A stretch of DNA of 63,427 nt, filler included, from Welwitschia mirabilis (Eukaryota), in NCBI GenBank assembly GCA_051453625.1. It is 7 parts of one record of this genome, joined end to end, with 100 filler letters (N's around TTAATTAATTAA, not from the genome) between each part and the next. Parts side by side here need not be neighbours in the genome. Positions count along the whole stretch, not along the records: positions 41,583 to 53,347 come from JBOZIK010000001.1; 6 more parts are not named here. One strand, written 5' to 3'. Made by a program: the position numbers and the translations under genes. The notes under the pieces were generated by a model. The model was not told the origin of the DNA. It saw nothing but the letters and a program-made list of their open reading frames with translations, and searched no databases. Positions 7,044 to 59,823 of this stretch are shown here, one piece after another; position 1 is the first letter of the stretch, and each line of letters starts with the position of its first letter.

Positions 7044-7087
7044 NNNNNNNNNNNNNNNNNNNNNNNNNNNNNNNNNNNNNNNNNNNN

Positions 7088-20570: not shown

Positions 20571-23405
20571 AGTTTGCCTTAAAACTTTTACATGAAGCTA
20601 TCTTACCATGCTTCTAAAAGCATGATAAAATATAATAGAGCATGAAAATATAGGAGAATGTGAAATGTGAAAGTTACAATCCTGACTCCTACTTAATATA
20701 GTTAAAAACTTATAGTTGCATTAGTTGCACATAATCAAGAAGTAAATACAACCATGAACTAAAATTAAACCAAATGGGAATGGATCTTTTTTGTACTCTA
20801 ATGATGCTAAGAAAAAAAATCTGAATTACATGTTGATAAGGTATAAATTAAAAATATTTATTAAGTTAAAACTAAGATAATAGATGCTAACATGGTTGGG
20901 ATGATGTAAAACTAACATTACAATGAGGATCATCGAGAATAAGTAGGGATTATCAAGAATGAGTTTAGGTGAAATTCTAGAGAAATCAAAAGACATACTT
21001 AAGTGGTAACTACTCTTTGAAATATCAAGTTTAATAAGGATTGTTAAAAACTCTTGATTTCTTGACAAGGGCTGTCATATCTATTATGGAGCTAGTTAAA
21101 AGAGTTCTAAGATGGTCATTGAGAACTCTTGAGTTTTCAACAAGGTCATTTGATTATGATCACCATCATTATGAAAGCAATTAATAATAAAAAGCACATG
21201 ATAGAGTTATAGGGGAAAGTTAAGAGGGATCATCAAGAACAAGACTTTTCTCTTTTAGAAGCAAGTTTGAAGAGATAAGATTGACTTGAAATCTAATCCA
21301 AAGCTTTGGCTTTTGGCTGGTGTCAGTTAACTTTTAGAACTTACACTACGATAGTGTAGCTTAACATTTAATTCAAAGTTATGAATTTGAATCATTGTTA
21401 GTCAACTAAGTGTTCTTTATTTTTACTTATAGGATGAAGAACTAATTAGATTAGCTTAAAATCCAACTTGAAGTTTTGACTTCAAGTTAGTATTAATTAG
21501 TCACGTGATCTTATGTGATTATAGGTATTTTAAACATAAGAAAATAAATAAGTTGGCATGATATCTGACTCAAAGTTTTAACTTTGTTGATGTCAGCCAA
21601 AAGAATTTAAATTCTTATCATAATGGTTTGATCTAAAATCTGAGTCAAAGTTTTAGCTTTGGGTTGGCTTTAATCAACCAATTGATCTTTGATTTCAAGG
21701 CCTACTTCATGATGATATTCTATTGAAATAAAAACATTGGTAACTTTTATTTCTTATTCTTCCTTGAACCAAAATAAAAGAAAGTCTTTTTTGAGTTATT
21801 AAGTGTGGCCTAAAAAGTCTTCTCTTAATAAAAAATTATTTGTAGGGCTTTTAGTAATTTCTTAGCAATGTAGCTTATGTTGACAAAGATTAATGGATTT
21901 CTAAAATGGCATGTAACTTAGAAAACCTAAACTAATCATAAATCAATCTGAAGTTCTAACTTTAGATTGAACCTTGGTCTATTTGGGATTCCTTAATTCT
22001 AGACTTACTTTAAGATTGATGCTGATGCTTGGCACACTTTAGCTATTGGTAAAATAGGTATATTACTTTTACATAATCTTTTACTTCAAGATTGAACACT
22101 TTTAAACTAGGTGACTTAATATGAATTATACTTATTAAGCATAATAGTAAGACTTTATGCTATAAATCTCATTCCTTACATGCTAATCATTCATTATTAT
22201 TTACTTAAGATTTAGAATTTCTTCACTTAATCATTTTTCAATTCTTCTCATCTTTTCTTTGTGAATCCTCATGGTTTGCACTCCTCCTTCTTCTTCTCTT
22301 GTTATCTTTGTCATTAAGAAGGTAAAACATTATTTTTTCAACTTGGATTACACATAGATAGATATGTGCATTAGTGGTGTAGATCCCTAGTCACCTCAAA
22401 TCTCTGTTAGGTCTAAAAACATGGTATAATAGTTTTCATACTATGATTACAAATCAACTATTAAGGTCTTAGGTACCTTATATTCCTTCATTAGTAAGGC
22501 TAACAGAGATTTTTTTTAAAGCGGTATCATTCCTCTAAGTTTTAATCCCATGATCCATTACTTGGTGGATGAGTATCTGAGGATAAGAACTAAAGAACTT
22601 CATTAGCAATACAATTATGGGCATTTAGCTTGTGATGTTTCTTTTGGCTAGCTAGCTAAGTAGATGGAAGTACTAGAGAAAATGTTTAATCAGCTTTAAA
22701 GCATAAATCCTATCCTTAGTCTTATTGCATTGAGTTTTGATAAGGAAAATATAGAGAAGAAAATATGGGATGCTAAACCTTATCAAAACTTTTGGTGAGC
22801 CCATCTAGAGGAGATTAATATGCTATCTAAATTTCTAAGAGAGATGCATCTAATGCCCTCCAAATGAGACTTCTATAGGATCATCTAATAAGACTAGGAA
22901 TTCTCAAAGGAGAAATAAGTTTTCTGGCTACTTCAAAAATTAAGTTGCTTTAGTTGCTGATTTATTTACTTAGTAAGTTAAGAAATGTTTTCGCCCTTAT
23001 TCCTGTAACTAGATGTAATAAAACATTTTGCTTAATAAATTTTTTATTTCAAATAATATTGTCTTATGTTATTTTTATTTTATTATGTACATCAATTCCA
23101 TTAAAGGAAATTTAAACTAAACAATTTATTAAATTATTAAGATAATGTGAAATGATTCTAAAACTTTGAAAATTTCCCTTAGCTCAAACAAAATTTAATG
23201 ATTGTACATGATATTGAATTAAAAATATTTGGATATACATTCTATCATAGAATAGAATATCTTTCTTCTCTTTGTTTTCTCTATTAATCTTTCCTTTTTT
23301 AATATAAGTTATGATAGAATCATAATTTTGGTAACTAAATATATCTTAGATGATTCCTGGGGTATAAATATTCCTCAACTTTTTATTTTTTACAACTTAA
23401 GTTAA

Positions 23406-23589
23406 CCACAATGAGGAGAGTGCAACCACTATCAGTAAGGACCCATAGAATATATATTTATATTTTTTTTATATATCTAGATCATTGCTAACTGATCCCT
23501 CAATGCAGTTCTCATAGCTACCATATTATATTATCAAAGGCCCCTCCTAGAAATATTTGCCCTAGTGAATTTGTGATAGAACATCGTGG
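23406..23589. ncRNA. Putative structured RNA motif, copy A of 5
   Basis: Shares GAGTGCAACCACT, AACTGA-CCC, GCTACCA, AAAGGCCCCTC and GAACATCGTGG blocks with copies at 44665, 45625, 54173 and 59132; terminal CCACAATG/CATCGTGG complementarity. Confidence 0.45.
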
Positions 23590-25165
23590 TTTATTTTATT
23601 CCTCTCTTATATAAACACACACACACCCAGCCACCCACCATAGAAGGTATTTTGTTTTGTGATGGAATATGTCTTATTAAATTTTTTAATAAAGATAATG
23701 CATAATTCCCTATTAAAGACTTAATAGATTAGCTTCTTGCTATATAATTATTACATTTACTTTAAATAATANNNNNNNNNNNNNNNNNNNNNNNNNNNNN
23801 NNNNNNNNNNNNNNNNNNNNNNNNNNNNNNNNNNNNNNNNNNNNNNNNNNNNNNNNNNNNNNNNNNNNNNNATAATTCCCTATTGAAGACTTAATAGGTT
23901 AGCTTCTTGCTATATAATTATTACATTTACTTTAAATAATCTAGTAAATTGGTAGCCTAAATAAGCTTTAAAGAAATAACATGTCCTTTATTATCTAATC
24001 TTGGAATTTATTTTATAGGTAGAGTGAAAGTATTCTTTTGATCTTATTAGGGTTTTTCAAAATAATTTAGCACTAATTTATGATCATACTACATTCTTCC
24101 TTTTTACCTATTAACTTGGTAGGTTTTTTTNNNNNNNNNNNNNNNNNNNNNNNNNNNNNNNNNNNNNNNNNNNNNNNNNNNNNNNNNNNNNNNNNNNNNN
24201 NNNNNNNNNNNNNNNNNNNNNNNNNNNNNNGTTTTTATAAATAATTTATCACTAATTTATGATCATACTACATTCTTCCTTTTTACATATTAACTTGGTA
24301 GGTTTTTTTCATTAGGATTGTTCTATGGCTCTATTTCCTAGAAATTTTGTTATGGTATAGGGTCCCTATTAATTTTGTTCATATTTCTATTTTGAATGGA
24401 TTTTCTTAGGTCATAAATTAATATAGACACTTTCACATTAAAATGTATTTCACTATTTCTATTATCATGATACATTTTAGTTTTTTTCTATGTAAGTTCT
24501 TTATGCAGAAGTGCTTCTTTTCTATTTTCATATAAAACATTCATGTTTACTATTGTCACATCCATATTTCTTCAAGTTCAAAGATTTATCTTAAAAAATT
24601 AATTAAAGTAATTTTATTCTTATAGAGTCCTCAAGGTAGTNNNNNNNNNNTGCATGTATTTATTTTCTAGTTTCTTATGGTCCAAATTTTATTGTAAAAA
24701 TTTCATATACTAATCTCTCATATTTTGTAGTAGTCATAATGTTTCCTTTATTGAAAAATTTTTATGATTGATTCTTGTGGTTTAATTATTATAACTACTA
24801 CTACACTTTATCTATTTTAACTAGAAAATAGCTTTTATGTAGTTTTCGATTGCATCATAATCATTGTTATATTTTTTGAGATATAAATACACCTAGTGGC
24901 CTAGTAAGGAATGAAATGATGATTATTTAATCTTTATCAACTTTTGCCACCTTGAGCATCCTCCTTTATGATGTTTCATCTTCATATTCTTGTAATCCTT
25001 CACATTCCATAAAACCTCAGTTATAAATAGGACCCTTCTTCCTCCTTCTCCTTACATTTATTTCTAAAGAAGCCTTCACTACTAAAGCTTGGAACTTGGA
25101 TAAGCCTTTGAACTTTGAGCCTTTGAATCTTTAGAAGTTCTCAAATCTTTGTTTTTATTCAGGGA

Positions 25166-33306: not shown

Positions 33307-33469
33307 NNNNNNNNNNNNNNNNNNNNNNNNNNNNNNNNNNNNNNNNNNNNTTAATTAATTAANNNNNNNNNNNNNNNNNNNNNNNNNNNNNNNNNNNNNN
33401 NNNNNNCTAGTTAAAATTTTATTTAGTAGAACTCATTTACCCCTCCTCCCTAAGATTAATAATCCTCAA

Positions 33470-39944: not shown

Positions 39945-40885
39945 ATCCTTCTCCTGCATCACCCATTTACATGTACTTCATCACCCCTGCAATGCCCTCT
40001 AGATGGATAAAAATGGAAGAAAAGATGATGGAAAATGGAATTTAAAAGGGATTAGAAGGCTGAAAATGGATGTTATGATATAAAAATATGAATATGAAGA
40101 ATGTGGAAGGCTTTTAAAGCTAGTAACAGAGAAGATAAATGCGAAAATAAAGAAATATGAGAGAAATGAGAAAATCTCCTTCCAATGTTCTAGGATGGTT
40201 TGAATCACATCAAATTGGCATAAAAATGGTGAGTAACATTATTATTTAAGGTGGGATATTAATAAAGATTTTTATAGGTGCATTTCAATTGATTTTAGCC
40301 TGAGAAGTTGCTAAAACCATCACATTTCCATATGTAATTCATAAGACATTAGTGAAAACTATCATATGGTGTTGCAATATCAATTTACTCATGAAAATGA
40401 TGATGCAGCATCATAGATAGTTTTAAAAATTAACTACCTCAACTTCTAAAAATTAAATTAATTTAATTTATTGCTTTAAGCTAATATTACCTAAAAACAT
40501 CAAATTTGACTAAAATTAACTAGAAATACACATATTATAGCTTCCAAAATGTAAATTTTGAAGGTACTAATGTTCTAAAATGCTCTGATGTTATCCAATG
40601 TCATGCATCTAGTGTCAAAATGAGTTTGAATCATTTCATTAGCAAGTGGATGAGATATGATGATAGAATAGAGACTATAAATCATCTATAGAGCTGCTAG
40701 TTTAAAGTAGTTCTCTAAGATCTACATTTTCTCCCTTGATCATGATCCCCTAATTGCAATTATCACAAAGAGCTTTAAAATGGATAATAATGCATCATTT
40801 TAAGCTCATAGATTATCTAAGATCCCTGTCATCTAAAAAGTGTAGGAATGCCTCTAAAAATAATATTAAAGTTTGAAATGTAATG
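39945..40885. repeat. Second copy of the 34780-35885 repeat
   Basis: Same colinear blocks; ORF-track translations at 34831 and 39999 are visibly homologous. Confidence 0.75.
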
Positions 40886-41391
40886 TACAATAATAACTAT
40901 TTTCTGGCATCACCAATATTATGTTATCATTATTTGTAATATATTTCTTAGCTAACATGTAGGGTGGTGATGATAAATTTATGTTTTTCTATGCTACACA
41001 AGCTATATATAACCATAGAACTAGGGATAGCACATTACATAAGCTTCCACTCTAGTCCATGCTCACAACCTAATCCTATCATAAATGCTTCTACTTAGTA
41101 AGTATCACTCCTTATCTAGAGATACTTCAATAAGATCTAATGCAAAATATGATCCATTATAGCTTTTACTAGTTTATAAGGCCTTTCCATAAAGAGTATT
41201 ATCTCACCTAGTTGTGGGAATTCTACAAGAGGATAACTTTACATTATTGTGATCCCATCATTTAATATCCCAACCAGCTAGAGTGAGAAATTATAATTAA
41301 GTCATAAGTAAAACACATAAAGTTATATTACTAAGGCATTTTACAAAATGATTTCATCATCCCCAATGAAGGGACTAGTCCATATATGGAT

Positions 41392-43335
41392 TGTAACATC
41401 AAGGAGGAAAAACTAGATTTTTTTAGAGAAGTGGTTAGAGAAGAAGAGGCTTTAGAGACTTTAATGTTAAGCTTTGATAAAANNNNNNNNNNNNNNNNNN
41501 NNNNNNNNNNNNNNNNNNNNNNNNNNTTAATTAATTAANNNNNNNNNNNNNNNNNNNNNNNNNNNNNNNNNNNNNNNNNNNNGCCTCTCTAACTTATCCC
41601 TACTAAGATCAATCCTCTCCCCATATCTGGAAACCCCTACAACTATTGTAATGTGTTGTGTCTCAATGTATATGCAATGTCCTCCTATAATAGATCTAAT
41701 TTGGTTATAATGTAAACCATCCTACTTGGTGGCTGAAATAACCTCAAAGGTCTAGTAAAACTGAATAATCTCTACCTCATAGTAAGAGCCATGATCATGT
41801 AATAACTAGCCAAAAATATTGAACTCCTCCAGTGCATGGTCTAAGTCATGNNNNNNNNNNNNNNNNNNNNNNNNNNNNNNNNNNNNNNNNNNNNNNNNNN
41901 NNNNNNNNNNNNNNNNNNNNNNNNNNNNNNNNNNNNNNNNNNNNNNNNNNNNNNNNNNNNNNNNNNNNNNNNNNNNNNNNNNNNNNNNNNNNNNNNNNNN
42001 NNNNNNNNNNNNNNNNNNNNNNNNNNNNNNNNNNNNNNNNNNNNNNNNNNNNNNNNNNNNNNNNNNNNNNNNNNNNNNNNNNNNNNNNNNNNNNNNNNNN
42101 NNNNNNNNNNNNNNNNNNNNNNNNNNNNNNNNNNNNNNNNNNNNNNNNNNNNNNNNNNNNNNNNNNNNNNNNNNNNNNNNNNNNNNNNNNNNNNNNNNNN
42201 NNNNNNNNNNNNNNNNNNNNNNNNNNNNNNNNNNNNNNNNNNNNNNNNNNNNNNNNNNNNNNNNNNNNNNNNNNNNNNNNNNNNNNNTGGTCTAAGTCAA
42301 GATCTAGCCTCTAATTATAGTTACTAAGATGGATCTCCCTTTGGTAAATGATAGAAGCAAATATATGACTTCCCTCCTATAGAATAGCATTTTACTTCCA
42401 TTATTTTTCTACCCGGGTACTAATAGAGTATGTACATGTTTGAGAAGAGGATGTACTTGTGTCACTCATTTTGATGAAATATGATTGAATTTCTTAAAAT
42501 TAATAGCCCTAAAGGTAAAAGATGAGTGAGGCTCTTGAGAGGAGTTAGAGGAAACATGTGAGATAAGAATTGGTTATAAAATGAGGTATAAAAATGGATA
42601 TATAAAAACTCTATCGTGCTATTATCCCTTGTGTCATGGGAATAATAGTAGAGATGACACATGTGTCATTTGCTTAGTCATGCAGAAAATAATGGGCATG
42701 ACCATATAGAAAAACCAAAATAAAAATTATAGTCGTCATCCCACATGTCATGGGATGACATATCAAATGAAAGCATTCTTGATTTCTAATCAATCCTTAA
42801 TTTTGAAGTTGAACCTTACTAATGGAGGTAATTTCCATCATAAACTTAGTTTTTATGAATTTTAACATTGTACTTAGGAATTGTAAAAATGCTAATATGA
42901 TGAAGGTAAGCCTTAAAAATTTTTATTAAACTAGGTTCAAAGTTGATAAAAAGTCATGGATCTAAGATAAGTGATTTTTGAAGGATCTATTGAGATGGAT
43001 TAATTTGCTTAATTGGCCAAAATTAGCATTTGAAAGGGTCTAATGGAGAAGTCTAAGAAAATTTGATGATTTAGGAAATTTCTCAATTTTAATCTTATCC
43101 AAATTTAAGTGCTTTCAAGTTTTCTGATTAAGAAGAGGATAAGGATCATGAATCATTTAGTTAGTTTGCCAAAAATTAAATTTGAGTGTCATGTCCTTGG
43201 TCATAGGGATGATACAAGACATGATAGTATTACAACAAGTGTCATGGCCTTGGTTGTGGGAATGACATATGACACGATGGGATTTTAAAGGTACATGCAT
43301 AAGATAAATCTAGAATTGAAAGTGGGGTAGTTACA
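41392..43335. mobile_element. Probable solo LTR (TGTAAC...GTTACA) with 5-bp TSD TGGAT
   Basis: Inverted termini TGTAAC at 41392 and GTTACA ending at 43335; TGGAT at 41387-41391 and 43336-43340. Contains gaps, so hidden internal sequence cannot be excluded. Confidence 0.75.
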
Positions 43336-44664
43336 TGGATGTTAGAAAATATTTATGAGAATTAGGCATAATAGAAATTTAATGTAGAAATGGCTCATGA
43401 GGTGCTAGAGACATAAAAACTAGAAATTACAAATTGAGAATTGAAAATGAAATGCAAAAACTTAAGCCTTAACATGTTTATAATATATTTCAAGGCTAGT
43501 AGCTGGATGATAAAATGCATAGAGTTCATGATGAGTAACTTTACTTAACTAAAGAATTAAACCCAATAAGAATTTTAAAAGGATGCAACTTAATTTTGAG
43601 AATTTTTGACTTAACTATCAAAGTATAAAAGAAATGGATTAAATATAACATGAAGAAGGTTGGTTCCTTTTATTCTAGATGCCCACCTNNNNNNNNNNNN
43701 NNNNNNNNNNNNNNNNNNNNNNNNNNNNNNNNNNNNNNNNNNNNNNNNNNNNNNNNNNNNNNNNNNNNNNNNNNNNNNNNNNNNNNNNNNNNNNNNNNNN
43801 NNNNNNNNNNNNNNNNNNNNNNNNNNNNNNNNNNNNNNNNNNNNNNNNNNNNNNNNNNNNNNNNNNNNNNNNNNNNNNNNNNNNNNNNNNNNNNNNNNNN
43901 NNNNNNNNNNNNNNNNNNNNNNNNNNNNNNNNNNNNNNNNNNNNNNNNNNNNNNNNNNNNNNNNNNNNNNNNNNNNNNNNNNNNNNNNNNNNNNNNNNNN
44001 NNNNNNNNNNNNNNNNNNNNNNNNNNNNNNNNNNNNNNNNNNNNNNNNNNNNNNNNNNNNNNNNNNNNNNNNNNNNNNNNNNNNNNNNNNNNNNNNNNNN
44101 NNNNNNNNNNNNNNNNNNNNNNNNNNNNNNNNNNNNNNNNNNNNNNNNNNNNNNNNNNNNNNNNNNNNNNNNNNNNNNNNNNNNNNNNNNNNNNNNNNNN
44201 NNNNNNNNNNNNNNNNNNNNNNNNNNNNNNNNNNNNNNNNNNNNNNNNNNNNNNNNNNNNNNNNNNNNNNNNNNNNNNNNNNNNNNNNNNNNNNNNNNNN
44301 NNNNNNNNNNNNNNNNNNNNNNNNNNNNNNNNNNNNNNNNNNNNNNNNNNNNNNNNNNNNNNNNNNNNNNNNNNNNNNNNNNNNNNNNNNNNNCTTGGTT
44401 CCTTTTATTCTAGATGCCCACCTAATAAGAACCACATTGGATAATTGTTAGACTAATTAATGTAAAAGATATACATGACATAATGCTTTCAAGATGATAG
44501 ATTTAGAAGTAAGTAATTATGAAGAGATGTTCATCAAGGTACTCATAAATGTTTTTTTAGTGCTTTTTATCTTCCTTCATCATTCTTTCTCTTCCTTATT
44601 TCCATCTTTTAAAAATCGGGGTTTTATTTAAAGAGGGAGATTGAGTGTTAAGAGAGACTATTCT

Positions 44665-44823
44665 TCATGGTGAGGGAGGTGCAATCACTACCATAGGTAA
44701 AAACCCAATCATGACCAACTATCCCCTAGGTGGAGTCTCCACTGCTACCATGTTACATTGTTAAAAGAGAATGGACTCAAAAGCCAACTGTCCCTCTGGT
44801 GTGCTTGTGGCAGAACATCATGG
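44665..44823. ncRNA. Putative structured RNA motif, copy B
   Basis: Same conserved blocks; lies in non-coding sequence downstream of the minus-strand integrase. Confidence 0.5.
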
Positions 44824-45624
44824 AATTAAATACACTTCTATTTTTATTTTGAAGGTATTTAAACTTTTCTAATGAGGTAATTGATAAAAATCAAGTATTC
44901 ATAGGTATTTAAATACCTTGAGTTTAGATAAAGTCAAACTTATCACTTATTAAACATCATGAATCTTAATGATTGAGCATTGTTCATGTGAAGGACAATC
45001 AAGTAGTTTAATAAATCTGAGATAGATCAAGTTAAGAAGTCATCTAGACAATAACAAAGAGGAGGGACTCCTCTTTTTCAAAGAGAGGTTCCTCTAACTC
45101 AACTACTTCTATCATGTTCACTNNNNNNNNNNNNNNNNNNNNNNNNNNNNNNNNNNNNNNNNNNNNNNNNNNNNNNNNNNNNNNNNNNNNNNNNNNNNNN
45201 NNNNNNNNNNNNNNNNNNNNNNTAACTTGACTTAGCTAAAGAATTAAACCCAATAAGAATTTTAAGAGAATGCAATTTGGTTTTGAGAATTTTTAACTTT
45301 AACTATAAAATTATGAAAGACATGAATTTAAAGGGCATGAAGAAGGTTAGTCCTTTGTCTTTTAAGTGCCAACTTAACAAGACCTACATAGGATAATTAT
45401 CAGACTAATTAACGTGAAAGATATTCATGACATAATGCTTTAAGGTAAGAGATTTAAAAGTAAGTAATTATGAAGAGATGCTTATCAAGCTACTCATAGA
45501 AATTTTGAGTTCTTTGTTTATTTTCCTTCTCTTTCTTTCTCTTCCTCCTTCCCCTCCACTTTTTTTTTTTTTTTTTGAGTGTTTTATTTAAAGAGGAAGA
45601 TTGAGTATCAAGAGATACTATTCT

Positions 45625-45799
45625 TTATGATGAAGAGGATGCAACCACTACCATAGGAGAAGGGATCTGCAGGTAAAAACCCGATCATGGCCAACTATCC
45701 CCTAGGTGGAGTCTCCATAGCTACCATATCACACTGCCAAAAGAGAATGGACCCAAAAGCCAACTATTCCTTTGGTGTGATTGCGGTAGAACACCATGG
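45625..45799. ncRNA. Putative structured RNA motif, copy C
   Basis: Nested stems CTACC/GGTAG, CACACTG/TGGTGTG and AAGAGAATGG/CTATTCCTTT; about 300 bp downstream of the integrase end on the minus strand. Confidence 0.55.
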
Positions 45800-46112
45800 A
45801 ATTAAACACCATTTACTTTTTATTTTGAACGTATTTGTACTTTTCTAATGAGGTAATTGATGTGAATTAAGTATTCATAGGTATTTAAATACCTTGAGTT
45901 TAAATAAAGCCAAACTCATTACTTGTTAAACTTCATAAATCTTAATGATGGAGCATTAGTCATGTGAAAGATAACTAAATAGTCTGATGAATTCAAGATA
46001 GATTAAGTTAAGAGATAATTTAGACAATAACAAAAGAAAAGGCCTCCTCTTTTTCAAGAAGAGGTTCCTCTAACTCAACTACTTCTATCATGTTGACTGA
46101 GTAAGAATAATG

Positions 46113-49100
46113 ACTAGGTGATTGATAATGTTTTAAACATTATCTATTTACCTTCATTATTTCATTAGTTTTTAGGTTAGAAATATCAATTGAACCATTG
46201 GAATGGATCTTCTCAATTAGATATGGATCTAACCATTTAGAAGTCTGTTTGTTATGAATTAAATAAACTTTAGCATTAAAGAGTATAACATACTAGCCAG
46301 GGTAAAGTTCTTTATGCACAAGGTTTTTATCATATTCATGTTTGGCTTGGGTTTTGACTATAAGTTAGTGATGAAGATCCTAGATTCTCTTTTCATCAAG
46401 GTAGTTTAATTGAATTAAGTGTGCTTGAAGATTGTTAACATGAGAAATAATGCTAAGTTGATGAACTATTTTGTAATAATTATAACATACATCGACTAGA
46501 AGCACACACGTTTTACCATAGACAAGTTCATAAGGAGAGAAACCTAAATAATTATACTAAGTCATATGATAAGTCCAAAGGACATTATTAAGACAAAGTG
46601 CCCATGATTTTTGAGACTTTGATAAAGTTTGAAGAGTACTTTTTTGATCTCACGATTAGCATTTTCAGCTTGCCCATTTGATTGGGGATGGTAAGAGTTA
46701 GCTATTATATGTTTAATTTCAATTGAAAGTAAGAGTTTTTTAAGGATATTATTAATGAAGTAAGTACCTTGATCAGAAATGAAAATTCTAGGAAATTCAA
46801 ATCTTTGAAAGATGTTTGATCTAAGAAATTGGCAAACAGTTTTTGCATCATAAGTATGTAGAAATGGCTTCAACTCATTTTTTACATAATTAAATATCAC
46901 TAAGATATAATGCTTTCCACATGAAGGGGGTTTGAGAGTACCTACAAAGTCTATACCCCAATAATCAAAAGGTTCACATTTGAAGATAGGTGTAAGAGGC
47001 ATGTCATGAATTCGAGTAAGACCTCCAGATTCTTAGTAAGAATCACATTTCCTAGTGAAGTCAAAGGCATCTCTAAATATAGAGGGCTAACAGAATCCTA
47101 AATGTAAGATTTTTATAGCATTTTTTAGCAGTTTTTCATCATAAAATAACCTTCACAAACTCTGCCATGATAAAGAAGAAGAATTTCTTATTGCTCCTAT
47201 TCAAGATCACATTTGTGCATTATTTGATCTTTGCATTGCCTACACAGATGTGGTTTGATCCATTCATAGTTACCTATCCTATGGAAGAAAGATTTTCATT
47301 CATTTCTATTCTAGTGAGAAGATGTTTTAAGTATGACAAGATAATTTACAATATTACTGTACCAAGGAGTAGGTTGTTTTAAAGATATATCATAAAATTA
47401 TTCAATCAGGAAAAGTTGTTCATCTAGGAAATCATCATAAATCGGTTGATTGAAAGAATTAGGAGAAGTATTTGAAGGAATTCTAAAAAGATGATAAGCT
47501 ACTAGATTTTGTTTTCTTGCTTTATCCACTATCATCAAATTGAATTCTTGTAATAAGAGTACACATCACATCAGGCACATACTAGAATCTTTCTTTATCA
47601 TTAAATATCTAATGGTAGCATGATCTATATAAACATAAGTATGAAAACCAAAGTGATAATGTCAAAGTTTGTTTACACAAAAGATGATTACTAGCATCTC
47701 TTTTTTAATATTTGTATATTTAAGTTAAGCACTAGAAAGGGTTCTACTAATTTAGCTAATTACTTTCATCCCTTTCTCATTTTTTTAATCCTAATACTTC
47801 ACCTACGGTAAGATTACTAGCATCACATATTAGCTCAAAGTTCTTATTCCAATCTGGTCCACTCACTATGGGTTCATTGGTAATGGTAATTTTAAGATTC
47901 TTAAAGGCTTGTTAGCATTCATTGCTCCATTTATATTTAACATCTTTTTTTAAAATTTGATGAAGTGACTTACAAATTTTTTCATATCCTTTAATGAATC
48001 TGCGATAAAATCTATAATGTTTCAAAAATGATTGTACTTGTTTTATGTTAGAAGGGGTTGGAAGATTTTTTATGACATCAATTTTTGATGGGTCCATTTT
48101 TATACCTCTCATTGAAATATGATTTCCTAAAACTATCCCTTCATTAACCATGAAATGGCTTTTTTCCTAACTAAGGTGAAGTCTATTCTCAATACATCAT
48201 TCTAAGATTTGTACTAAATGATTTAAAGTTTGATTAAACTAATATTCAAAGACTAAAAAATCATCCATGAAAATTTTGATGGAGTTTTCTACAAGGTTAC
48301 TAAAATTCCCATCATAGCACATTCAAAGGTACCTAGAGCATTACATAAACGAAAAGTCATTCTTCTAAAAGAATAAGTACCAAAAGAAGAGGTGAAATTA
48401 GTTTTTACTTGATTTTTATTTACAATACATACTTGGTTGTATCCACTATAACCATCAAAGAAAGAGTATAATACATGTCCTTGTATTCTATCCAATACTT
48501 GATCAAGAAAAGAAAGAGGGCAATGATCCTTTTTAGTTACTTCATTAAGTCTTCAGAAGTTTATGCATACTTTCCACTTACCACCTTTCTTAGATACTAC
48601 AATTAATGGACTAACCCACTCACTATCGCTTATAAGATAAATGATATTAGCATTTTAAAGTTTAATGATCTCATCTTTAACCACTTGTTTTAGTGCTGGA
48701 TGTAGATGTATTTAAGGTTGTGTTATGGGTTTTGAATTGTCCTCTAGGTATATCTTGTGTTGAACAATATGTGGTGGAATAGGAGATATGTTCTTATGAC
48801 TTCAAGCAAAAGCTTCAGATTTAGATGTGAGAAGTGATACTAAGGCTTGCTCATCTTTTAGGTAGAAATGACTACTAATGATTACTTAGGATTGTTTTTG
48901 ATAAAAATGTATTTCAATCCCCTTTTAAGCTTCTTCAGATTCATCTTAAAGTTGACTCCTTCATGTCTATTAGAGATTGCATATCCATCCTCATAAAAAG
49001 TTGTCTCCATGGTTTTTACTTCTTTAATATCTTGAATTATGATGTTGTCAAATGTTTCTTTTATGAGGGGTTCCATATTACTATTAAGTTCATGAGGGTT

Positions 49101-51660
49101 GATGGAATTAAGACTACTTAAGATTGTTGAGAATTCCTTCATATCATTAAAAAGAGTTAGCTGTTCATGTGTGAGGGCCTTCAATTCAAGTGAATGATGA
49201 ACTACAAACATTGTTGATCTAACATATTTACTAATCTTATCATTTAAATTTCTTGTATCCTTTTCTACTACATTAAAGACTTGAACTTGGATCTTTTTAC
49301 TACCTACATGAAGTTCTGTGATTCCAGTTCTACCATCTATAATGTAGTGAATAGCAGCACAAAAAATTCTACCTAAAAGTAAGGGGTATTCACCCTTGTT
49401 ATTAATTTCTATAATGATGACATCCATGGGATAGTAGGCTTCCTCTCTTTGGATAACCAAATACTTAATAATTCTAATAGGTTTTCTCAATATTAAATTA
49501 GGAATTTCCAAGATAATTTTTATTGGTTCAATTCGGTTTTCTAATCCAAACTTTTTAAAATGTAGATAGGCATAATGTTGACACTTTCACCTATGTTAAT
49601 AAGGGCTTTCTTAATCTTTTTGTTGCCTTCTAAGATTATACTAATGGTTGCTACTCCTAGATCTTTGAATTTTAGACATTTTAGCATTACCAAGTTGGAT
49701 ATAGATTAGGCTAAAAACATTTTACTTGCTAATGTATATTTTTGCTTCCTCCTACAAAGGTCCTTTCATACTTCGACATACTTAGGTTGTCTTGAAGTAT
49801 GCGATAAAATGGTAGTATGACATTGACATCTTTTAGGATTGTTTTGATGTACTCATCATAATTTGGATTGAATTGAGTTGATATAATTAAGGGATAAGAT
49901 GTTTTATTTCTTTTTTTAATGATGCATTCTTGTTGGTTGAAGTGGAAGTAGAAGGAAAGTGTATCTTATCAAGGATTTATACATTTCATCCTTTCTTTTC
50001 TTAATTTTATCATTTGTAGATGGTTCTTTAAGTGTAGTAATACTGCTTTTTTCGGTGACTATCTTCCAAACCTTCTTTACATCATTGGAATTAGGTAATG
50101 TGTTAAAAGCTAATATGCCTTGTGGTCTTTGGTTAGCTAACATAATTTTTTGCATAATTTTAGTCAAATCTTGTATACTTTTTTTTGTTTGATCAATACT
50201 CTTATGGGTCTATTTGTGGATGCTTCTTATTTTTGTTATAGCTTCCTTAATTGAATCTTCTTTATGTTGTTTGTATCTTTTATATCTTAGGTTATATGGT
50301 TGTTTAAAGAAGGATTTATACTCGGGTTTGAAAGAAGGACCTGGTTGATGGTAAGGCTTCTTCTCATTGTGATAAGGTCCTTTGTAGTAATTATGTCTAA
50401 TTGGTTTGCATAGCATACTTCTTCCCTTACTACTTCCTTCACAATTATCAAAAATGGGCATTTAGTAACTGAGTGGTTTTCTTCACATAATTCACAAGTA
50501 GGAGTTGATTTAGTGTGGGCCTTTGCTAATTTTACTTCTCTGATTAGTTTCATTAGTTTCCTTACAAGTGGGTTGTCATTGTCACTACTATCGTCATCTT
50601 TATAAATGATTTGTTTTTGTTTGCCCTCTAGATGTTTTATATTATGGATTTTTCTTAAATATTGCTCAAGAATTTTCTTTTCTCTAGGCTTAGATCATGC
50701 TTGGTAAGGTTCAACTAAGTCTCGTAAATGTTGTTATACTTCATTAGTTGTGTGTTGAAATAAACTCCCTTCTCAAGAAAGATCTACAATTTGTTTTAGT
50801 ACACTAGTGAGGCTATTGTATAAATGATAGATTAATTCTTCTTATTTGAATTCATCTATGGGGTTGGTGAAAACTAAAATTAGGAATCTTTCCCAAGATG
50901 AAGCATAATTCTCATTGTCTTTCTATTGAAAATTGGTTATCTCTTAATGTCATTGCCTCAAAGTGGTTCCACTAAGGAATCATTTGATAAAGCTTTCTTT
51001 GATATCCTTCAAAGTTTTGAGACTTTCATAGGGTAAGTCCTTAAGCCAATTCTTTACTTTTTCACTCAGAAAAGACTATCATATAGTTTCTATCTATTGT
51101 GGATTTCTTTTCATTACATATAAGCATCAATTATTTAATGGCAACAATGTGTTCATAAGGATCTTCATGAGTTTCTCCATAGAAAGAGGGATAGACATTA
51201 AGATTTTTAATTTTTTTAATCATTTCCAATAGGAAGATCAAAAGGATTATGGATTTTTCTAAGTTTTATCCTTAAGAGTTGGTTGGTCATCACTAGAAAT
51301 TGTAGACATTATGGGAGTTGTAGGATTTTGATTTATACATTTATGATTCAAAGAATATGAAGTTGAAACTTGATTTGCAAAAGAATTTAAATTAGGACTA
51401 AAAGAAATTATAATAGAAGAGGTGATTTTTATTTTGAGATAGTATTTAGAAATCCTAGAAGATGATTTGATAGATAATGAAAAATTTTCAGAATGTAAAT
51501 TACAATCTTTTAGTAAATCAGATTTATCAAATTTAAAAATAAAAATTTCTCACCTTGAGTCCTTGAATTACATATTTGAATACCTTATTGAATTTCCTCT
51601 TTTAAAAATTACTTTCCATGTTGATAACGTATATTTTTTTCTTTGGAATTTGATTTCATT
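46113..51660 (-). pseudogene. Ty3/gypsy (Athila-like, non-chromoviral) gag-pol pseudogene, essentially complete
   Basis: Order gag (CELCEENHSVTKC), protease region (KALINIGESVNIM; YPLLLGRIF), RT (FFDGYSGYNQV; IFMDDF), RNase H (FELICDASN), integrase (PFDYWGIDFVG; FISDQGTYF; YHPQSNGQAE; KVNR*CLKHY). No chromodomain seen. Confidence 0.93.
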
Positions 51661-51699
51661 CCCTTGCTTAACCTGAAAAATCCCACCTTTTAAATCAAA

Positions 51700-53346
51700 A
51701 CCATTGTAGGCAATCTCTACGATTACATTAAAGTGCAAGGAGTAGACCCAATGATTAAGAGTAATGTTTTTTCATGGAATATTCATCTAGGATCTAAGAA
51801 AAAGACAGTGAAAGAATTCTTGTTATGTAATAATCCTTCTAGATCATACAAAGCACAAGAAGGTAGACCTATCAAGGTGAAATTATTGTATAAAAAAGAG
51901 AATAGAAAAAGAAGAAACAATTTGTAATAAAAATGGTACACAATATAAACAATAATTTGAAACAAGGTGTTACCATCTAAAGGTAAATAATCTTGCTTGG
52001 ATAGGGGTAGAAATATTTTCTTTGATCAAAAGGCAAGTAGATCTCTTTAGATAATCTCCTCGAAGCAAGTAGATTACNNNNNNNNNNNNNNNNNNNNNNN
52101 NNNNNNNNNNNNNNNNNNNNNNNNNNNNNNNNNNNNNNNNNNNNNNNNNNNNNNNNNNNNNNNNNNNNNNNNNNNNNNNNNNNNNNNNNNNNNNNNNNNN
52201 NNNNNNNNNNNNNNNNNNNNNNNNNNNNNNNNNNNNNNNNNNNNNNNNNNNNNNNNNNNNNNNNNNNNNNNNNNNNNNNNNNNNNNNNNNNNNNNNNNNN
52301 NNNNNNNNNNNNNNNNNNNNNNNNNNNNNNNNNNNNNNNNNNNNNNNNNNNNNNNNNNNNNNNNNNNNNNNNNNNNNNNNNNNNNNNNNNNNNNNNNNNN
52401 NNNNNNNNNNNNNNNNNNNNNNNNNNNNNNNNNNNNNNNNNNNNNNNNNNNNNNNNNNNNNNNNNNNNNNNNNNNNNNNNNNNNNNNNNNNNNNNNNNNN
52501 NNNNNNNNNNNNNNNNNNNNNNNNNNNNNNNNNNNNNNNNNNNNNNNNNNNNNNNNNNNNNNNNNNNNNNNNNNNNNNNNNNNNNNNNNNNNNNNNNNNN
52601 NNNNNNNNNNNNNNNNNNNNNNNNNNNNNNNNNNNNNNNNNNNNNNNNNNNNNNNNNNNNNNNNNNNNNNNNNNNNNNNNNNNNNNNNNNNNNNNNNNNN
52701 NNNNNNNNNNNNNNNNNNNNNNNNNNNNNNNNNNNNNNNNNNNNNNNNNNNNNNNNNNNNNNNNNNNNNNNNNNNNNNNNNNNNNNNNNNNNNNNNNNNN
52801 NNNNNNNNNNNNNNNNNNNNNNNNNNNNNNNNNNNNNNNNNNNNNNNNNNNNNNNNNNNNNNNNNNNNNNNNNNNNNNNNNNNNNNNNNNNNNNNNNNNN
52901 NNNNNNNNNNNNNNNNNNNNNNNNNNNNNNNNNNNNNNNNNNNNNNNNNNNNNNNNNNNNNNNNNNNNNNNNNNNNNNNNNNNNNNNNNNNNNNNNNNNN
53001 NNNNNNNNNNNNNNNNNNNNNNNNNNNNNNNNNNNNNNNNNNNNNNNNNNNNNNNNNNNNNNNNNNNNNNATCCTGACACCAAGGAGACTCCTTTCTATA
53101 GCACGAGATGGACCTCTCATCCTTCAAGATTCTGTTACAAGTATTAGATACAAAAGATGGGGTGAAAATGAAGGAGGAGAAGGGTATTTATATATTTTCA
53201 ATTGAGGGATTTGAAGGTAAACCCTAAAGATAGGAAATAGAAATTCTAACGATCCACATGAGTTATTTGACCTCATTTACAATGAAATTTATTATTGTAG
53301 TGTAGAAATAGTTGTTATCATGTCTTTCGTCCACATGACATAGGGG
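51700..53346 (-). repeat. LTR sequence; 53153-53346 is homologous to 55682-55877
   Basis: Shared AAAGATGG..GGAGGAGAAGGG..TTTATA..GATCCACATGAG..TCGTCCACATGAC blocks; left boundary uncertain. Confidence 0.55.
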
Positions 53347-54172
53347 ANNNNNNNNNNNNNNNNNNNNNNNNNNNNNNNNNNNNNNNNNNNNTTAATTAAT
53401 TAANNNNNNNNNNNNNNNNNNNNNNNNNNNNNNNNNNNNNNNNNNNNGAGGAGGACGACAGACTCCAAAACAGCTAATTTGAAGAGGAAGGTGAAACTTA
53501 AAAAAGTTAGAAAACCAGAAAATATAGGAATGCAACTAAACAAAGAGAGTGATCTAAGAAATAAAATGAATAAAGAGCCTAAAATGTGAATGCCTGATGG
53601 AGCAGTGGAAAATGATAATAGAGGAAAAATACACCAAGAAAAAAATACTATGCAAAGATGCCTCAAATATGCCCATATGCATAAAAAATTAAAACTCATT
53701 AGATCAAGAAAACCTACTAGAAAGAAACAACCATTCTCTAAAAATCATAAAAAAAAACTAGAAAATGATTAGGTCCATGATATGATGCTGAAAAGTATAA
53801 ATAAATGACTTTGAAAATCCACAAAATCACAAAAGAAAAATAAAAATGAAAATGAATAACTAGGAATATGAAGAAGATTGCTTTATTACCCTAAATGCTA
53901 ACCTAATAAATTCCTAGAGTAACAATGATAAAATAACTTGAGTAATGATTCATAACATAATGTATAAATTCATAAATTTCCACTCAATTAGGTAATGATT
54001 ATGATGATGTCAAAAATGCTAATGTTATCAAGCAATAAATGATTAGATAAAAAACTATTAAAATACATGGACTTATAAGCTACCATGTCAAAATAAACAC
54101 TAAACTCCAGAAAGTAGAGTGATCATGTGGAAGTACTAAAAATAAATAAATAAAAAAAAGCAATTGATTTTT

Positions 54173-54329
54173 CCATGATAAGGGGAGTGCAACCATTATC
54201 AGAGGAGTAATGACCTATATATCATGCTCAACTGACCCCTCAGTGGAGTTTCCACAGCTATCATATCATACTACTAAAGGCCCCTCTCAAGAATATTTAC
54301 TCCAGTACACTTGCAGTAGGACATCATGA
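54173..54329. ncRNA. Putative structured RNA motif, copy D
   Basis: Same blocks as copies A and E; inside the 53448-54560 region duplicated at 57900-59530. Confidence 0.5.
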
Positions 54330-55681
54330 TTACCATGTATGTAAAGATATAACATGAAAGAGCATGGTAATTTATTTCTTTTTTATTCTTCTTTTTTTCT
54401 TTTTTTTTTTGTGTATCATTCCACATAATCAAGTACTTATAAGAATAAAAGTAAAGAAATGAGATCAGTAATAAAATAAGATCCTACAAAAACAACTAAT
54501 TTAATTACATCATTGAAAGACAATAAAAGAATCAAGGCATCTTCCTTTTAAATAAAGTTCATAGATGTTGTGATGTAAATTTATGCAATCTGAGAATCAC
54601 TTTAGATAACCTATAGATCATATAAANNNNNNNNNNNNNNNNNNNNNNNNNNNNNNNNNNNNNNNNNNNNNNNNNNNNNNNNNNNNNNNNNNNNNNNNNN
54701 NNNNNNNNNNNNNNNNNNNNNNNNNNNNNNNNNNNNNNNNNNNNNNNNNNNNNNNNNNNNNNNNNNNNNNNNNNNNNNNNNNNNNNNNNNNNNNNNNNNN
54801 NNNNNNNNNNNNNNNNNNNNNNNNNNNNNNNNNNNNNNNNNNNNNNNNNNNNNNNNNNNNNNNNNNNNNNNNNNNNNNNNNNNNNNNNNNNNNNNNNNNN
54901 NNNNNNNNNNNNNNNNNNNNNNNNNNNNNNNNNNNNNNNNNNNNNNNNNNNNNNNNNNNNNNNNNNNNNNNNNNNNNNNNNNNNNNNNNNNNNNNNNNNN
55001 NNNNNNNNNNNNNNNNNNNNNNNNNNNNNNNNNNNNNNNNNNNNNNNNNNNNNNNNNNNNNNNNNNNNNNNNNNNNNNNNNNNNNNNNNNNNNNNNNNNN
55101 NNNNNNNNNNNNNNNNNNNNNNNNNNNNNNNNNNNNNNNNNNNNNNNNNNNNNNNNNNNNNNNNNNNNNNNNNNNNNNNNNNNNNNNNNNNNNNNNNNNN
55201 NNNNNNNNNNNNNNNNNNNNNNNNNNNNNNNNNNNNNNNNNNNNNNNNNNNNNNNNNNNNNNNNNNNNNNNNNNNNNNNNNNNNNNNNNNNNNNNNNNNN
55301 NNNNNNNNNNNNNNNNNNNNNNNNNNNNNNNNNNNNNNNNNNNACGAAAAGAAAGAAATAAATAATGAAAATCTAGTCTACTAAAACAAGTCAACTTTAA
55401 TAAAGGTTGTTCTTATGATTTAAATAAATCAAAGCTTGTCACTTAATTAAGATCAACTTAAATCATAAGGGAGATGCATGATAATGAGATGAAAAAAGAG
55501 ATTATATTAACTCAAGTAAAATTAGAACAACATCCACTTACAAATCAGAATAACATCCACTTACAAATCAGANNNNNNNNNNNNNNNNNNNNNNNNNNNN
55601 NNNNNNNNNNNNNNNNNNNNNNNNNNNNNNNNNNNNNNNNNNNNNNNNNNNNNNNNNNNNNNNNNNNNNNNNNNNNNNNNN

Positions 55682-56995: not shown

Positions 56996-57056
<61 letters not shown>
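56996..57056. repeat. (GA)n microsatellite running into a gap
   Basis: About 28-30 GA units. Confidence 0.95.
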
Positions 57057-59131
57057 NNNNNNNNNNNNNNNNNNNNNNNNNNNNNNNNNNNNNNNNNNNN
57101 NNNNNNNNNNNNNNNNNNNNNNNNNNNNNNNNNNNNNNNNNNNNNNNNNNNNNNNNNNNNNNNNNNNNNNNNNNNNNNNNNNNNNNNNNNNNNNNNNNNN
57201 NNNNNNNNNNNNNNNNNNNNNNNNNNNNNNNNNNNNNNNNNNNNNNNNNNNNNNNNNNNNNNNNNNNNNNNNNNNNNNNNNNNNNNNNNNNNNNNNNNNN
57301 NNNNNNNNNNNNNNNNNNNNNNNNNNNNNNNNNNNNNNNNNNNNNNNNNNNNNNNNNNNNNNNNNNNNNNNNNNNNNNNNNNNNNNNNNNNNNNNNNNNN
57401 NNNNNNNNNNNNNNNNNNNNNNNNNNNNNNNNNNNNNNNNNNNNNNNNNNNNNNNNNNNNNNNNNNNNNNNNNNNNNNNNNNNNNNNNNNNNNNNNNNNN
57501 NNNNNNNNNNNNNNNNNNNNNNNNNNNNNNNNNNNNNNNNNNNNNNNNNNNNNNNNNNNNNNNNNNNNNNNNNNNNNNNNNNNNNNNNNNNNNNNNNNNN
57601 NNNNNNNNNNNNNNNNNNNNNNNNNNNNNNNNNNNNNNNNNNNNNNNNNNNNNNNNNNNNNNNNNNNNNNNNNNNNNNNNNNNNNNNNNNNNNNNNNNNN
57701 NNNNNNNNNNNNNNNNNNNNNNNNNNNNNNNNNNNNNNNNNNNNNNNNNNNNNNNNNNNNNNNNNNNNNNNNNNNNNNNNNNNNNNNNNNNNNNNNNNNN
57801 NNNNNNNTCCAACACAGGAGAAGCAAGACGTCCCAAATTTCATCTGAAACCAATAATACCAAAAAAAATATTGTTGTCCTCTATGTCATGGGGACGACAG
57901 AGTAGGACGACAGACAACAGCTGATATGGAGAGGAATTTAAGACCTAGAAGACTCAAAAAATCAAAGAATGCAGGGATGTAATTGAAGAGAGAGAGAGAG
58001 ACCTGAGAAATAAAATAATTAAAGGGCCCAAATAGTGAATGCATGATGGATAAGTGAAAAAGGATCATAAAGTGAAAATGTAATAAGGAAAAATACTGCT
58101 CAAAGATGCCTTAAATATGCCCAAATGCATGGAAAGTTGAATGCATTAGATGAAAGGAACCTATCAGAAAGAAACAACCATCCTCTAGAAAACACTACAA
58201 AAGAGTAAAAATTATGTAGGCCCATGATATAATGCTTGAAAAAGTAGAAGGAAATAATTTTGAAAATTCCAACAAAACAACTAAGGAAAAACAAAATGAA
58301 AATGGACAACTAGAAACATGAAGAAGANNNNNNNNNNNNNNNNNNNNNNNNNNNNNNNNNNNNNNNNNNNNNNNNNNNNNNNNNNNNNNNNNNNNNNNNN
58401 NNNNNNNNNNNNNNNNNNNNNNNNNNNNNNNNNNNNNNNNNNNNNNNNNNNNNNNNNNNNNNNNNNNNNNNNNNNNNNNNNNNNNNNNNNNNNNNNNNNN
58501 NNNNNNNNNNNNNNNNNNNNNNNNNNNNNNNNNNNNNNNNNNNNNNNNNNNNNNNNNNNNNNNNNNNNNNNNNNNNNNNNNNNNNNNNNNNNNNNNNNNN
58601 NNNNNNNNNNNNNNNNNNNNNNNNNNNNNNNNNNNNNNNNNNNNNNNNNNNNNNNNNNNNNNNNNNNNNNNNNNNNNNNNNNNNNNNNNNNNNNNNNNNN
58701 NNNNNNNNNNNNNNNNNNNNNNNNNNNNNNNNNNNNNNNNNNNNNNNNNNNNNNNNNNNNNNNNNNNNNNNNNNNNNNNNNNNNNNNNNNNNNNNNNNNN
58801 NNNNNNNNNNNNNNNNNNNNNNNNNNNNNNNNNNNNNNNNNNNNNNNNNNNNNNNNNNNNNNNNNNNNNNNNNNNNNNNNNNNNNNNNNNNNNNNNNNNN
58901 NNNNNNNNNNNNNNNNNNNNNNNNNNNNNNNNNNNNNNNNNNNNNNNNNNNNNNNNNNNNNNNNNNNNNNNNNNNNNNNNNNNNNNNNNNNNNNNNNNNN
59001 NNNNNNNNNNNNNNNNNNNNNNNNNNNNNNNNNNNNNNNNNNNNNNNNNNNNNNNNCCGATCTATCCATAAAGTAGAGCAATCATGTGGAAGTACTTAGA
59101 AATAAATGAAGAGAAAAAGTGATTTATTATT

Positions 59132-59288
59132 CCATGATAAGGGGAGTACAACCTCTATTAGAGGAGTAAGAACCTGCATAGCATGGCCAACTGACCCCCC
59201 AGTGAAGTTCCCATAGCTACCATATCACACTGCCAAAGGCCCCTCTCAGGAAAATTTGCCTTGGTGTGCTTGTGGTAAGACATCATGT
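59132..59288. ncRNA. Putative structured RNA motif, copy E
   Basis: Stems CTACCA/TGGTA, CACACTG/TGGTGTG, AAGGC/GCCTT; lies between the integrase and PPT of a minus-strand gypsy. Confidence 0.55.
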
Positions 59289-59823
59289 TACCATGTGTAT
59301 AAGGATATAACAAGAAAGAACATGGTAGTTTATTTTCTTGTCTTTGTTGCTTCTCTTTCTTTTTTTTTTTTTTGAGATGAATATCATTCCACATGATTAA
59401 GTACTTGTATGGATAAAAGTGAAGAAATGAGATGAGTAATAAAATAATATCCTACACAAACAACTAGTTACTTATATTATTATAAAATAATAAAAGAATC
59501 AAGGCATCTTCTTTCAGAATGAAGTTCATAGACATACAAATGTCTGAAAATTGGATGAAGCCAATTTTATCATTGTAAATGCTCAAAGTAAAATCTTACT
59601 TATCATGGAAACTTTATAAGTAGCTACAGATGTCAAGTTAGAGATGTTTAAGTAATAACATGATGTTAACCAAAGGAATGAGTTAAGAGAGATTTTAGAT
59701 AATGGAAAAAGAAAGATCTTCCTNNNNNNNNNNNNNNNNNNNNNNNNNNNNNNNNNNNNNNNNNNNNTTAATTAATTAANNNNNNNNNNNNNNNNNNNNN
59801 NNNNNNNNNNNNNNNNNNNNNNN

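Follow-up and report, generated by a model that had tools for sequence, protein, structure and literature searches.

What is the GC-richer block of about 170 nt that recurs near gypsy genes in Welwitschia mirabilis, and does it act as RNA or as DNA? To address this question, we analyzed one stretch of DNA of 63,427 nucleotides (hereafter the window), in which the first-pass annotation had marked five copies of the block and had proposed that they represent a cis-acting RNA of gypsy 3' non-coding regions. The window is a draft eukaryote scaffold containing 11,928 N in 53 runs, with a G+C content of 28.9% and a CpG observed/expected ratio of 0.14. At six places the same artificial join occurs, N44-TTAATTAATTAA-N44, a linker that carries stops in all frames. 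The contigs on either side of these linkers need not be neighbours in the genome.

Linker joins: 7044-7143, 27764-27863, 33307-33406, 41483-41582, 53348-53447 and 59724-59823

A motif shared by two families

The five copies are about 170 nt long (160-185 nt), can be aligned over their full length and have the same orientation in all five cases. They fall into two families, B/C and A/D/E.

23402..23592, minus strand: copy A (nhmmer, alignments)
44661..44827, minus strand: copy B, C-type (nhmmer)
45621..45803, minus strand: copy C, the focal copy (nhmmer, alignments, N map, pol domains)
54169..54332, minus strand: copy D, E-type (nhmmer)
59128..59292, minus strand: copy E (nhmmer)

An nhmmer profile built from the five copies matched these five in the window and no others (E-values of 2e-41 to 9e-51; the next match had an E-value of 3.8), values that are partly circular because the profile was made from those very copies. 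Direct blastn comparison between the copies does not share this circularity: copy C matched copy E with 85.7% identity over 56 nt (45686-45741 corresponding to 59182-59237, E-value of 1.6e-13), and copy E matched copy A with 76% identity over 106 nt. The match between families is thus the independent evidence for the copies. The profile and the between-family comparison together thus recover the copies where the first-pass annotation had placed them.

The only sequence common to the two families is the motif block. Between families the motif is 64-70% identical in global alignment, while the identity of the flanks does not exceed a shuffled null (44.5 ± 7.3, maximum 57.7) except for one upstream value of 58.0. 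Both the earlier statement that the flanks differ between B/C and A/D/E and the expectation that the motif is better conserved than its neighbourhood are borne out by these values. The copies are also GC-richer islands as described, with a G+C content of 0.34-0.47 versus 0.23-0.29 in the 300-nt flanks. Conservation is highest in a core of 56 nt, which is 85.7% identical across families, compared with 65-72% for their pol DNA. Between element 1 (the element of copy C) and element 2 the pol DNA is 65-70% identical, and for the pol fragment on the plus strand the identity reaches 70-76%.

45686..45741, minus strand: 56-nt core common to both families, comprising the 3' strand of P2, P3 and the 5' strand of P4 (helices described below)

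Within the families, the identity is 79% over 230 nt for C/B and 80% over 207 nt for E/D, and the motif has decayed at least as much as the flanks (78-79% versus 83-88% upstream). Such decay is expected since the copies are dead and methylated, and selection after insertion is therefore not indicated. It had been suggested that B/C and D/E might be assembly duplicates. However, they are only 79-80% identical, versus 93-95% for the obvious assembly duplicates of the window; they are therefore distinct copies, with some uncertainty as to where they belong relative to the gaps. Copies B and D lie on small contigs between gaps, that of copy B being 729 nt long, bounded by gaps and of uncertain placement, and copies B and C repeat at a spacing of about 960 nt. 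Copy A is solitary; it has kept CpG in the closing stem P1 and carries an AT-rich insertion in the variable region of P4.

Outside the window, a 20-nt word from the core had no match among viral contigs, and a degenerate 22-nt word had no match in either genome contigs or viral contigs. The sole metagenome-contig match to the 20-nt word (L001, 788-807) lies in a GC-rich bacterial contig and was set aside as a chance match.

Position relative to pol and to the polypurine tracts

We scanned 108 gap-free ORFs, each of at least 55 aa, with Pfam, and found gypsy pol domains confined to three regions of the window. A tblastn search with the window's own pol pieces returned the same three regions, with no match below 31966.

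46565-47032, minus strand: rve (Pfam, E-value of 9.9e-8)
61262-61540 and 61513-61773, minus strand: RT_RNaseH (Pfam)
32183-33304, plus strand: RVT_1 and RT_RNaseH (Pfam)
46020..47032, minus strand: integrase core ORF (46565-47032) and continuing pol frame (Pfam rve, frame reading)

In the database, the integrase is most similar to polyproteins of plant gypsy elements, at only 44-51% identity, and no lineage name resulted. The host is thus a plant, and the gypsy copies of the window are old and decayed.

Copy C is the only copy that shares a gap-free contig with gag and pol: the contig 45223-52077, the only long one without gaps, contains copy C together with gag, PR, RT, RH and INT, the genes being on the minus strand. 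The pol frame of element 1 has one internal stop and terminates at a TAA at 46020-46022, 221 nt before the start of P1 of copy C (45798). Since the adjoining pol is on the minus strand, the motif in the element sense is the reverse complement of the sequence as first read, and the strand given in the first-pass annotation has to be exchanged. Copy E lies on a contig of 667 nt that is scaffolded beside a minus-strand integrase. The start of this contig shows homology to element 1, covering the end of pol and the first untranslated bases (local score of 56 versus 22.4 ± 4.3 for shuffled sequences). By this homology, copy E has a context like that of copy C, with a spacer of about 400 nt. Copies A, B and D have no pol alongside. 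The 3' non-coding location in the pol sense is thus given by the gap-free contig for copy C and by homology for copy E; the earlier claim that B/C and D/E lie downstream of a gypsy integrase holds for these two copies and not for B and D.

Purine tracts accompany the motif at distances of 0-45 nt in all three groups.

45521..45576, minus strand: A18 and polypurine run directly downstream of copy C, candidate polypurine tract (PPT)
45812..45826, minus strand: short purine run rich in A, abutting copy C on its upstream side, alternative candidate PPT
59350..59373, minus strand: A14 and purine run upstream of copy E
54386-54410, minus strand: purine run upstream of copy D, arranged as in copy E

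The long A-run with its polypurine tract follows the motif in C/B and precedes it in D/E, and in copy A a purine run abuts the motif. The A runs are 12-18 nt long and lie 40-45 nt from the motif on opposite sides in the two families. When the long purine tract of C was compared with that of E, the score was 40, versus 27.5 ± 4.3 (maximum 42) for shuffled sequences, which does not establish homology. A search for the LTR pair of element 1, comparing 42288-45620 with 50700-54626, did not find one. From this arrangement, the motif would be located either just before the PPT or just inside U3, and in either case would belong to the 3' part of the full-length transcript. Because the order of motif and tract differs by family and the LTR borders were not found, the motif may lie in U3, which makes a role at the DNA level possible.

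A separate purine word of the GAAAAAGAGGAG type occurs in the last pol codons and is kept in the sequences of both C and B (46043-46055 and 45068-45079). It stands after a near-complementary pyrimidine word and could be a PPT-like signal or mere coding sequence. The start of the copy E contig aligns from the last bases of this GAAAAAGAGGAG-type word onward.

A predicted fold of four helices

RNAalifold assigned the minus sense -23.5 kcal/mol with 49 pairs, compared with -18.4 kcal/mol and 39 pairs for the plus sense. The minus-sense model contains four helices: P1, which closes the motif with 7 bp; the long arm P2; the small hairpin P3; and P4, a domain of long-range pairing. The first two are predicted whichever strand is folded and in both families, in agreement with the closing stem and long arm proposed before.

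45792..45798, minus strand: 5' strand of P1 in copy C (RNAalifold on both strands; 94% of cells paired)
45626..45632, minus strand: 3' strand of P1 in copy C (RNAalifold on both strands)
45721..45789, minus strand: P2, long hairpin arm of copy C (RNAalifold, single-copy folds)
45706..45718, minus strand: P3, small hairpin of the GUGGA-NNN-UCCAC type in the nested model (88% of cells paired)
45633..45703, minus strand: P4, domain with a GGGG/CCCC outer stem around the variable region 45653-45686 (RNAalifold)

The tip of P2 (45742-45770 in copy C) is unlike the A/D/E type in both sequence and length and retains its pairing, and the P2 hairpin also forms in single-copy folds of B, C and E. The previous observation of a distal stem that differs in sequence between the families and nevertheless pairs corresponds to this replaced tip. 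Likewise, the two variable regions to which the indels had been assigned both sit at hairpin tips.

In the nested model, 91.0% of 245 cells form standard pairs, versus 42-52% with slid partners, and none of 500 shuffles reached this value, although related sequences can exceed shuffles without any structure and the nested structure was derived from the same five sequences. Ten pairs are changed on both sides among the five sequences (two to three lineages), a number reached by 8 of 500 shuffles; most changes in the alignment are C>T/G>A decay, and the cells changed on both sides lie mainly in tips that may not be homologous. We also compared covariance models trained on A, D and E and scored on B and C. 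With the four-helix structure, copies C and B scored 89.0 and 80.3 bits, versus 66.4 and 53.3 bits for a sequence-only model and 66.3 and 61.3 bits for another structure; this result is supportive and not fully independent, because B and C had been part of the alignment from which the four-helix structure was derived. Minimum free energies of E and C on both strands were no better than those of shuffled sequences (z-scores of 0.30, -0.31, -0.84 and -0.01). Pairing of the copy C motif with the 5' region of element 1 was also at the shuffled level (-72.7 versus -73.1 ± 6.1 kcal/mol, 20 shuffles).

The third domain is ambiguous as modeled. The first-pass annotation had drawn it as a hairpin with two pseudoknot helices, a model in which 90.5% of 220 cells are paired (hairpin 92.5%, GGGG/CCCC 96%, and 76% for CCACU/AGUGG, the helix formed by the bases of P3). 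The nested and the pseudoknot models fit equally well, such that the pseudoknot stands as one of two candidate arrangements with neither favoured.

The strand can be considered from the G.U pairs. In the minus sense, 53 G.U cells stand against 13 A.C cells overall, and 19 against 8 in the helices that are predicted on both strands. The inner pairing of P4 is G.U-rich and exists on the minus-sense strand only, and the P2 tip of the transcribed variant, read by hand, pairs via G.U on the minus sense only. Within the limits of the model, the G.U excess may be taken as a mild hint toward the pol-sense strand.

Abundance and transcription of the core

We mapped the contigs of two DNA runs and the raw reads of two RNA runs, from the same or related species, on 45223-47200 at 80% likeness. 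The summed depth of DNA contigs peaked in the core bin (45685-45750), at 251k and 162k, while the two adjoining bins had 16-28k and the best integrase bin 116k and 89k. Public DNA contigs therefore pile up about tenfold on the 56-nt core relative to its flanks. The RNA depth in the core bin was 12.5 and 7.1 (both mate directions summed), versus at most 0.86 elsewhere, and the RNA reads of the untranslated region fall mainly in this bin. The core of the motif is thus transcribed. Both mate directions are present, so that the RNA libraries look unstranded and carry no strand information.

The unaligned ends of the core RNA reads run on as the A/D/E type, and in some reads the core equals that of copy C save for position 45713. 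In the transcribed copies, the CpGs at the tip of P2 are undecayed, and the tip can be read as a short stem of G and C with a GAGA loop on top. Reads with intact CpGs indicate that live or recently live copies exist. The first-pass annotation had restored CpGs in its consensus by reversing C>T/G>A decay. This restoration is matched in P1 of copy A and in the transcribed P2 tip, and fails at CCACGG/CTACCG, where the transcribed copies have no CpG.

Comparison with known RNAs and LTR-element modules

A search of the whole window with Rfam 15 at the gathering thresholds of the families gave no match, in line with the first-pass annotation, which could assign the motif to no family. When 44400-46100 and 59057-59723 were searched at E-values up to 10, two low-scoring rows overlapped a motif copy, MIR530 with 15.9 bits against a gathering threshold of 85 and mir-354 with 16.8 bits against 50; no ribozyme (including hammerhead), tRNA, 5S, 7SL or snRNA was returned for B/C and E in this search. 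ARAGORN found no tRNA gene in the whole window. Words resembling the A- and B-boxes, compared by eye with the consensus, have two mismatches each and a spacing that varies among the copies.

Two candidate assignments made from the motif itself were also rejected. A MITE would fit the 8-nt terminal inverted repeat, but the bases beside the borders of A, C and E show no target-site duplication and all five copies have one orientation. For a protein-coding segment, the few-stop frames of B/C are offset by one base from those of D/E, and the indels are of 7 nt and other lengths that are not multiples of three; on the sequence of the present copies, a coding origin can be regarded as already refuted.

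Cassandra TRIMs contain a 5S-like block and retrozymes contain hammerhead ribozymes. The motif resembles these in being a GC-richer, foldable block of 100-170 nt in an LTR element, but has no 5S or hammerhead match at Rfam E-values up to 10. The CTE of Mason-Pfizer monkey virus and the RTE of IAP are structured elements of about 150-230 nt that lie past the last gene, ahead of the 3' LTR, and act in cis on unspliced genomic RNA, the CTE being one long hairpin with two identical internal loops. Compared by description only, the motif is similar to them in size and in its probable location before the 3' LTR, whereas the gypsy elements here give no sign of spliced products that would need a transport element. 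Our literature search for transport elements of retroelements found no plant case.

[quoted passage not shown] ENEs are defined there by an internal loop whose U-rich strands, with G-C pairs on either side, clamp the poly(A) tail, and are reported in plant and fungal transposon RNAs (PMC12501189). The motif shares with the Evade ENE the character of a structured RNA in such a spacer (PMC12501189), but it lacks paired U tracts, belongs to Ty3/gypsy rather than copia and forms a multi-arm junction. We inspected the folds for an internal loop with U-rich strands on both sides and found none, and ENE-like folds near the A runs of E and D were not significant (z of 0.65 and 1.36). As judged from its folds, the motif is not a member of the ENEs.

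The nearest descriptive precedent is the set of motifs of Sireviruses, Ty1/copia elements with multiple PPTs and an inverted repeat around the PPT/3' LTR junction (PMC2829016, from the portion available). There, too, highly conserved non-coding sequence with inverted repeats lies by purine tracts where the internal region ends on its 3' side, in otherwise diverged elements; by contrast, the Sirevirus arms are 19-28 bp long and enclose the PPT and the LTR start (PMC2829016, same portion). The motif is a module of 160-185 nt that stands beside the purine tracts without enclosing them, and the superfamily differs. The 3' untranslated region of Tat/Ogre gypsy elements is, in the available part of PMC7004042, hypervariable with tandem repeats downstream of pol. 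This region of plant non-chromovirus gypsy elements is the one in which the motif lies, and it has repeated units (PMC7004042), comparable to the B/C repeat of about 960 nt. However, the Tat/Ogre repeats are hypervariable between families, while the motif block is the conserved part. Our literature search found no description of the motif; a survey of plant LTR elements describes large non-coding regions and does not mention such a motif in its available text (PMC6317226).

A candidate RNA signal of the genomic transcript

Taken together, a plant gypsy lineage carries in its 3' non-coding part a module that is real, conserved, transcribed and foldable. This discrete module is what stands of the cis-acting RNA proposed earlier; its catalytic option found no support. 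We consider there to be about an even chance that the motif acts in cis as a structured RNA, within the untranslated 3' part of the genomic RNA, and that it is possibly an element for Gag recognition or packaging. It would then be a structured segment of the retrotransposon genomic RNA, encoded on the minus strand of the window and located downstream of pol, before the R region of the 3' LTR. Its fold would be a junction at which P1, P2 and the third domain meet, the tips varying in length and the core being conserved in sequence. The core and the junction may serve as the recognition site for an element-encoded protein, either Gag/nucleocapsid or RT, and binding of this protein would mark the RNA for packaging or reverse transcription. 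We infer the strand of action, the action at the RNA level and the protein partner. A recognition site of this kind would explain why the motif is retained in diverged families and in copies without pol, and the ENE in the ORF-3' LTR spacer of Evade, which drives the mobility of that element, shows that structures in such a spacer can matter (PMC12501189, available text).

Were the motif located in the LTR, it could instead be a regulatory module at the DNA level, such as a U3 enhancer, promoter or CpG-island block, conserved through host or element factors that bind the double-stranded core, the inverted repeats being incidental or palindromic binding sites. The purine tract that precedes the motif in D/E and A could be the start of U3, the motif is a GC-richer island with CpGs in its transcribed copies, and the sequence of the core is conserved beyond the needs of its helices. 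The core-bin depth is about twice that of the best integrase bin, the ratio expected if each element has two LTRs, and Sirevirus LTRs have conserved repeated motifs that form CpG islands (PMC2829016, available portion). On the other hand, the long purine tract comes after the motif in C/B, and no second C-type copy is found 5' of element 1 within the sequenced 1.4 kb. Furthermore, helices 170 nt apart are kept, the replaced tips still pair, and the structure raises the scores of the held-out family by 23-27 bits. We regard the DNA-level module as unlikely, but as a live rival, like the passenger module considered next.

Sharp block borders with an 8-nt inverted repeat at the ends, the solitary copy A without pol, the varying position relative to the purine tracts and the weak likeness to pol III A- and B-boxes (by eye) would also suit a hitch-hiking module without a role for the element, in the form of captured host sequence or of a small mobile unit (tRNA-/SINE-like or MITE) spread between families by recombination. 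The similarity would then reflect recent exchange rather than constraint, and decay within families at least as fast as in the flanks (78-79% versus 83-88% upstream) would be in line with it. Yet ARAGORN is negative for tRNA, Rfam gives no likeness to tRNA, 5S, 7SL or snRNA at E-values up to 10 for B/C and E, the borders are without target-site duplications, the orientation is uniform in the five copies, and a conserved core with variable tips is unlike what recent exchange predicts, which leaves such a passenger improbable. Little more can be said for an RNA element of reverse transcription near the polypurine tract, active in RNase H positioning or strand transfer, or an ENE-like stabiliser of the 3' end, a reading that we find slightly less probable still. 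The closeness to purine tracts in the three groups (0-45 nt) fits it, as do the copia/Sirevirus inverted repeat at the PPT/3' LTR junction, proposed to aid primer formation (PMC2829016, available portion), and the Evade ENE in the same kind of spacer (PMC12501189, available text); but the motif encloses no purine tract, the side and the distance vary, the U-rich internal-loop strands flanked by G-C pairs are missing, and the A-run folds of E and D are null (z of 0.65 and 1.36). A self-cleaving ribozyme or a protein-coding remnant seems highly improbable. The multi-stem fold with its possible pseudoknot would allow the former, but no ribozyme family was returned at Rfam E-values up to 10. A plus-strand frame with few stop codons would allow the latter, but stop codons are expected to be scarce in a GC-richer block, the few-stop frames are one base apart between families and the indels are of 7 nt or other non-multiples of three.

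For the structured genomic-RNA element that we favour, a bolder form can be stated, which we think possible but doubtful: the motif may represent an undescribed class of RNA, a junction of about 170 nt with an invariant core that gives a lineage-wide signal to the element's own Gag or RT in packaging or replication. If this is true, the motif would serve a group of plant non-chromovirus gypsy elements together with their non-autonomous riders, and would be the first defined signal of such a kind in plant Ty3/gypsy elements. LTR retrotransposons make up the bulk of many plant genomes. To our knowledge, next to nothing has been learned of the RNA signals by which some of their transcripts are chosen for packaging and copying, or of how non-autonomous elements borrow the machinery. 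A block that has outlasted the divergence of pol, with helices kept and tips changed, and that is transcribed and more abundant in the genome than any other part of the family, provides a concrete candidate for a packaging or copying signal. Should the motif prove to be no more than a passenger or a promoter block of U3, the finding would be an ordinary one.

Other repeats and fragments in the window

The initiator tRNA-Met primer-binding word, searched in the whole window with at most two mismatches, had 8 matches versus 2.5 expected, none of them near element 1. These near-matches probably mark other LTR elements, and the pairs listed here fall within duplicated haplotype blocks.

19222-19233 and 20551-20562, minus strand: near-matches to the tRNA-Met primer-binding word
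8039-8050 and 8959-8970, plus strand: near-matches to the tRNA-Met primer-binding word

The duplicated blocks are arranged in tandem, flank 100-N gaps and are 93-95% identical. They resemble two haplotypes placed in series, and local repeat counts are inflated by them.

7936-8653 and 8856-9573: tandem duplicate
13917-14238 and 14339-14660: tandem duplicate
17512-17751 and 17852-18091: tandem duplicate
18305-19534 and 19635-20863: tandem duplicate
27047-27302 and 27403-27658: tandem duplicate

On the plus strand, an integrase fragment (31793-32070) lies upstream of the RT/RNase H region (32183-33304) with a 100-N gap between them. Since integrase before RT is an impossible order in one element, these are two fragments joined through scaffolding. 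A (GA)n microsatellite at 57014-57056, the translation of which reads RERERE..., leads into a 751-N gap. Finally, a direct repeat of about 900 nt (34976-35879 and 40003-40901, 76% identity, 5 kb apart), which is without the motif, may be the LTR pair of another old element.
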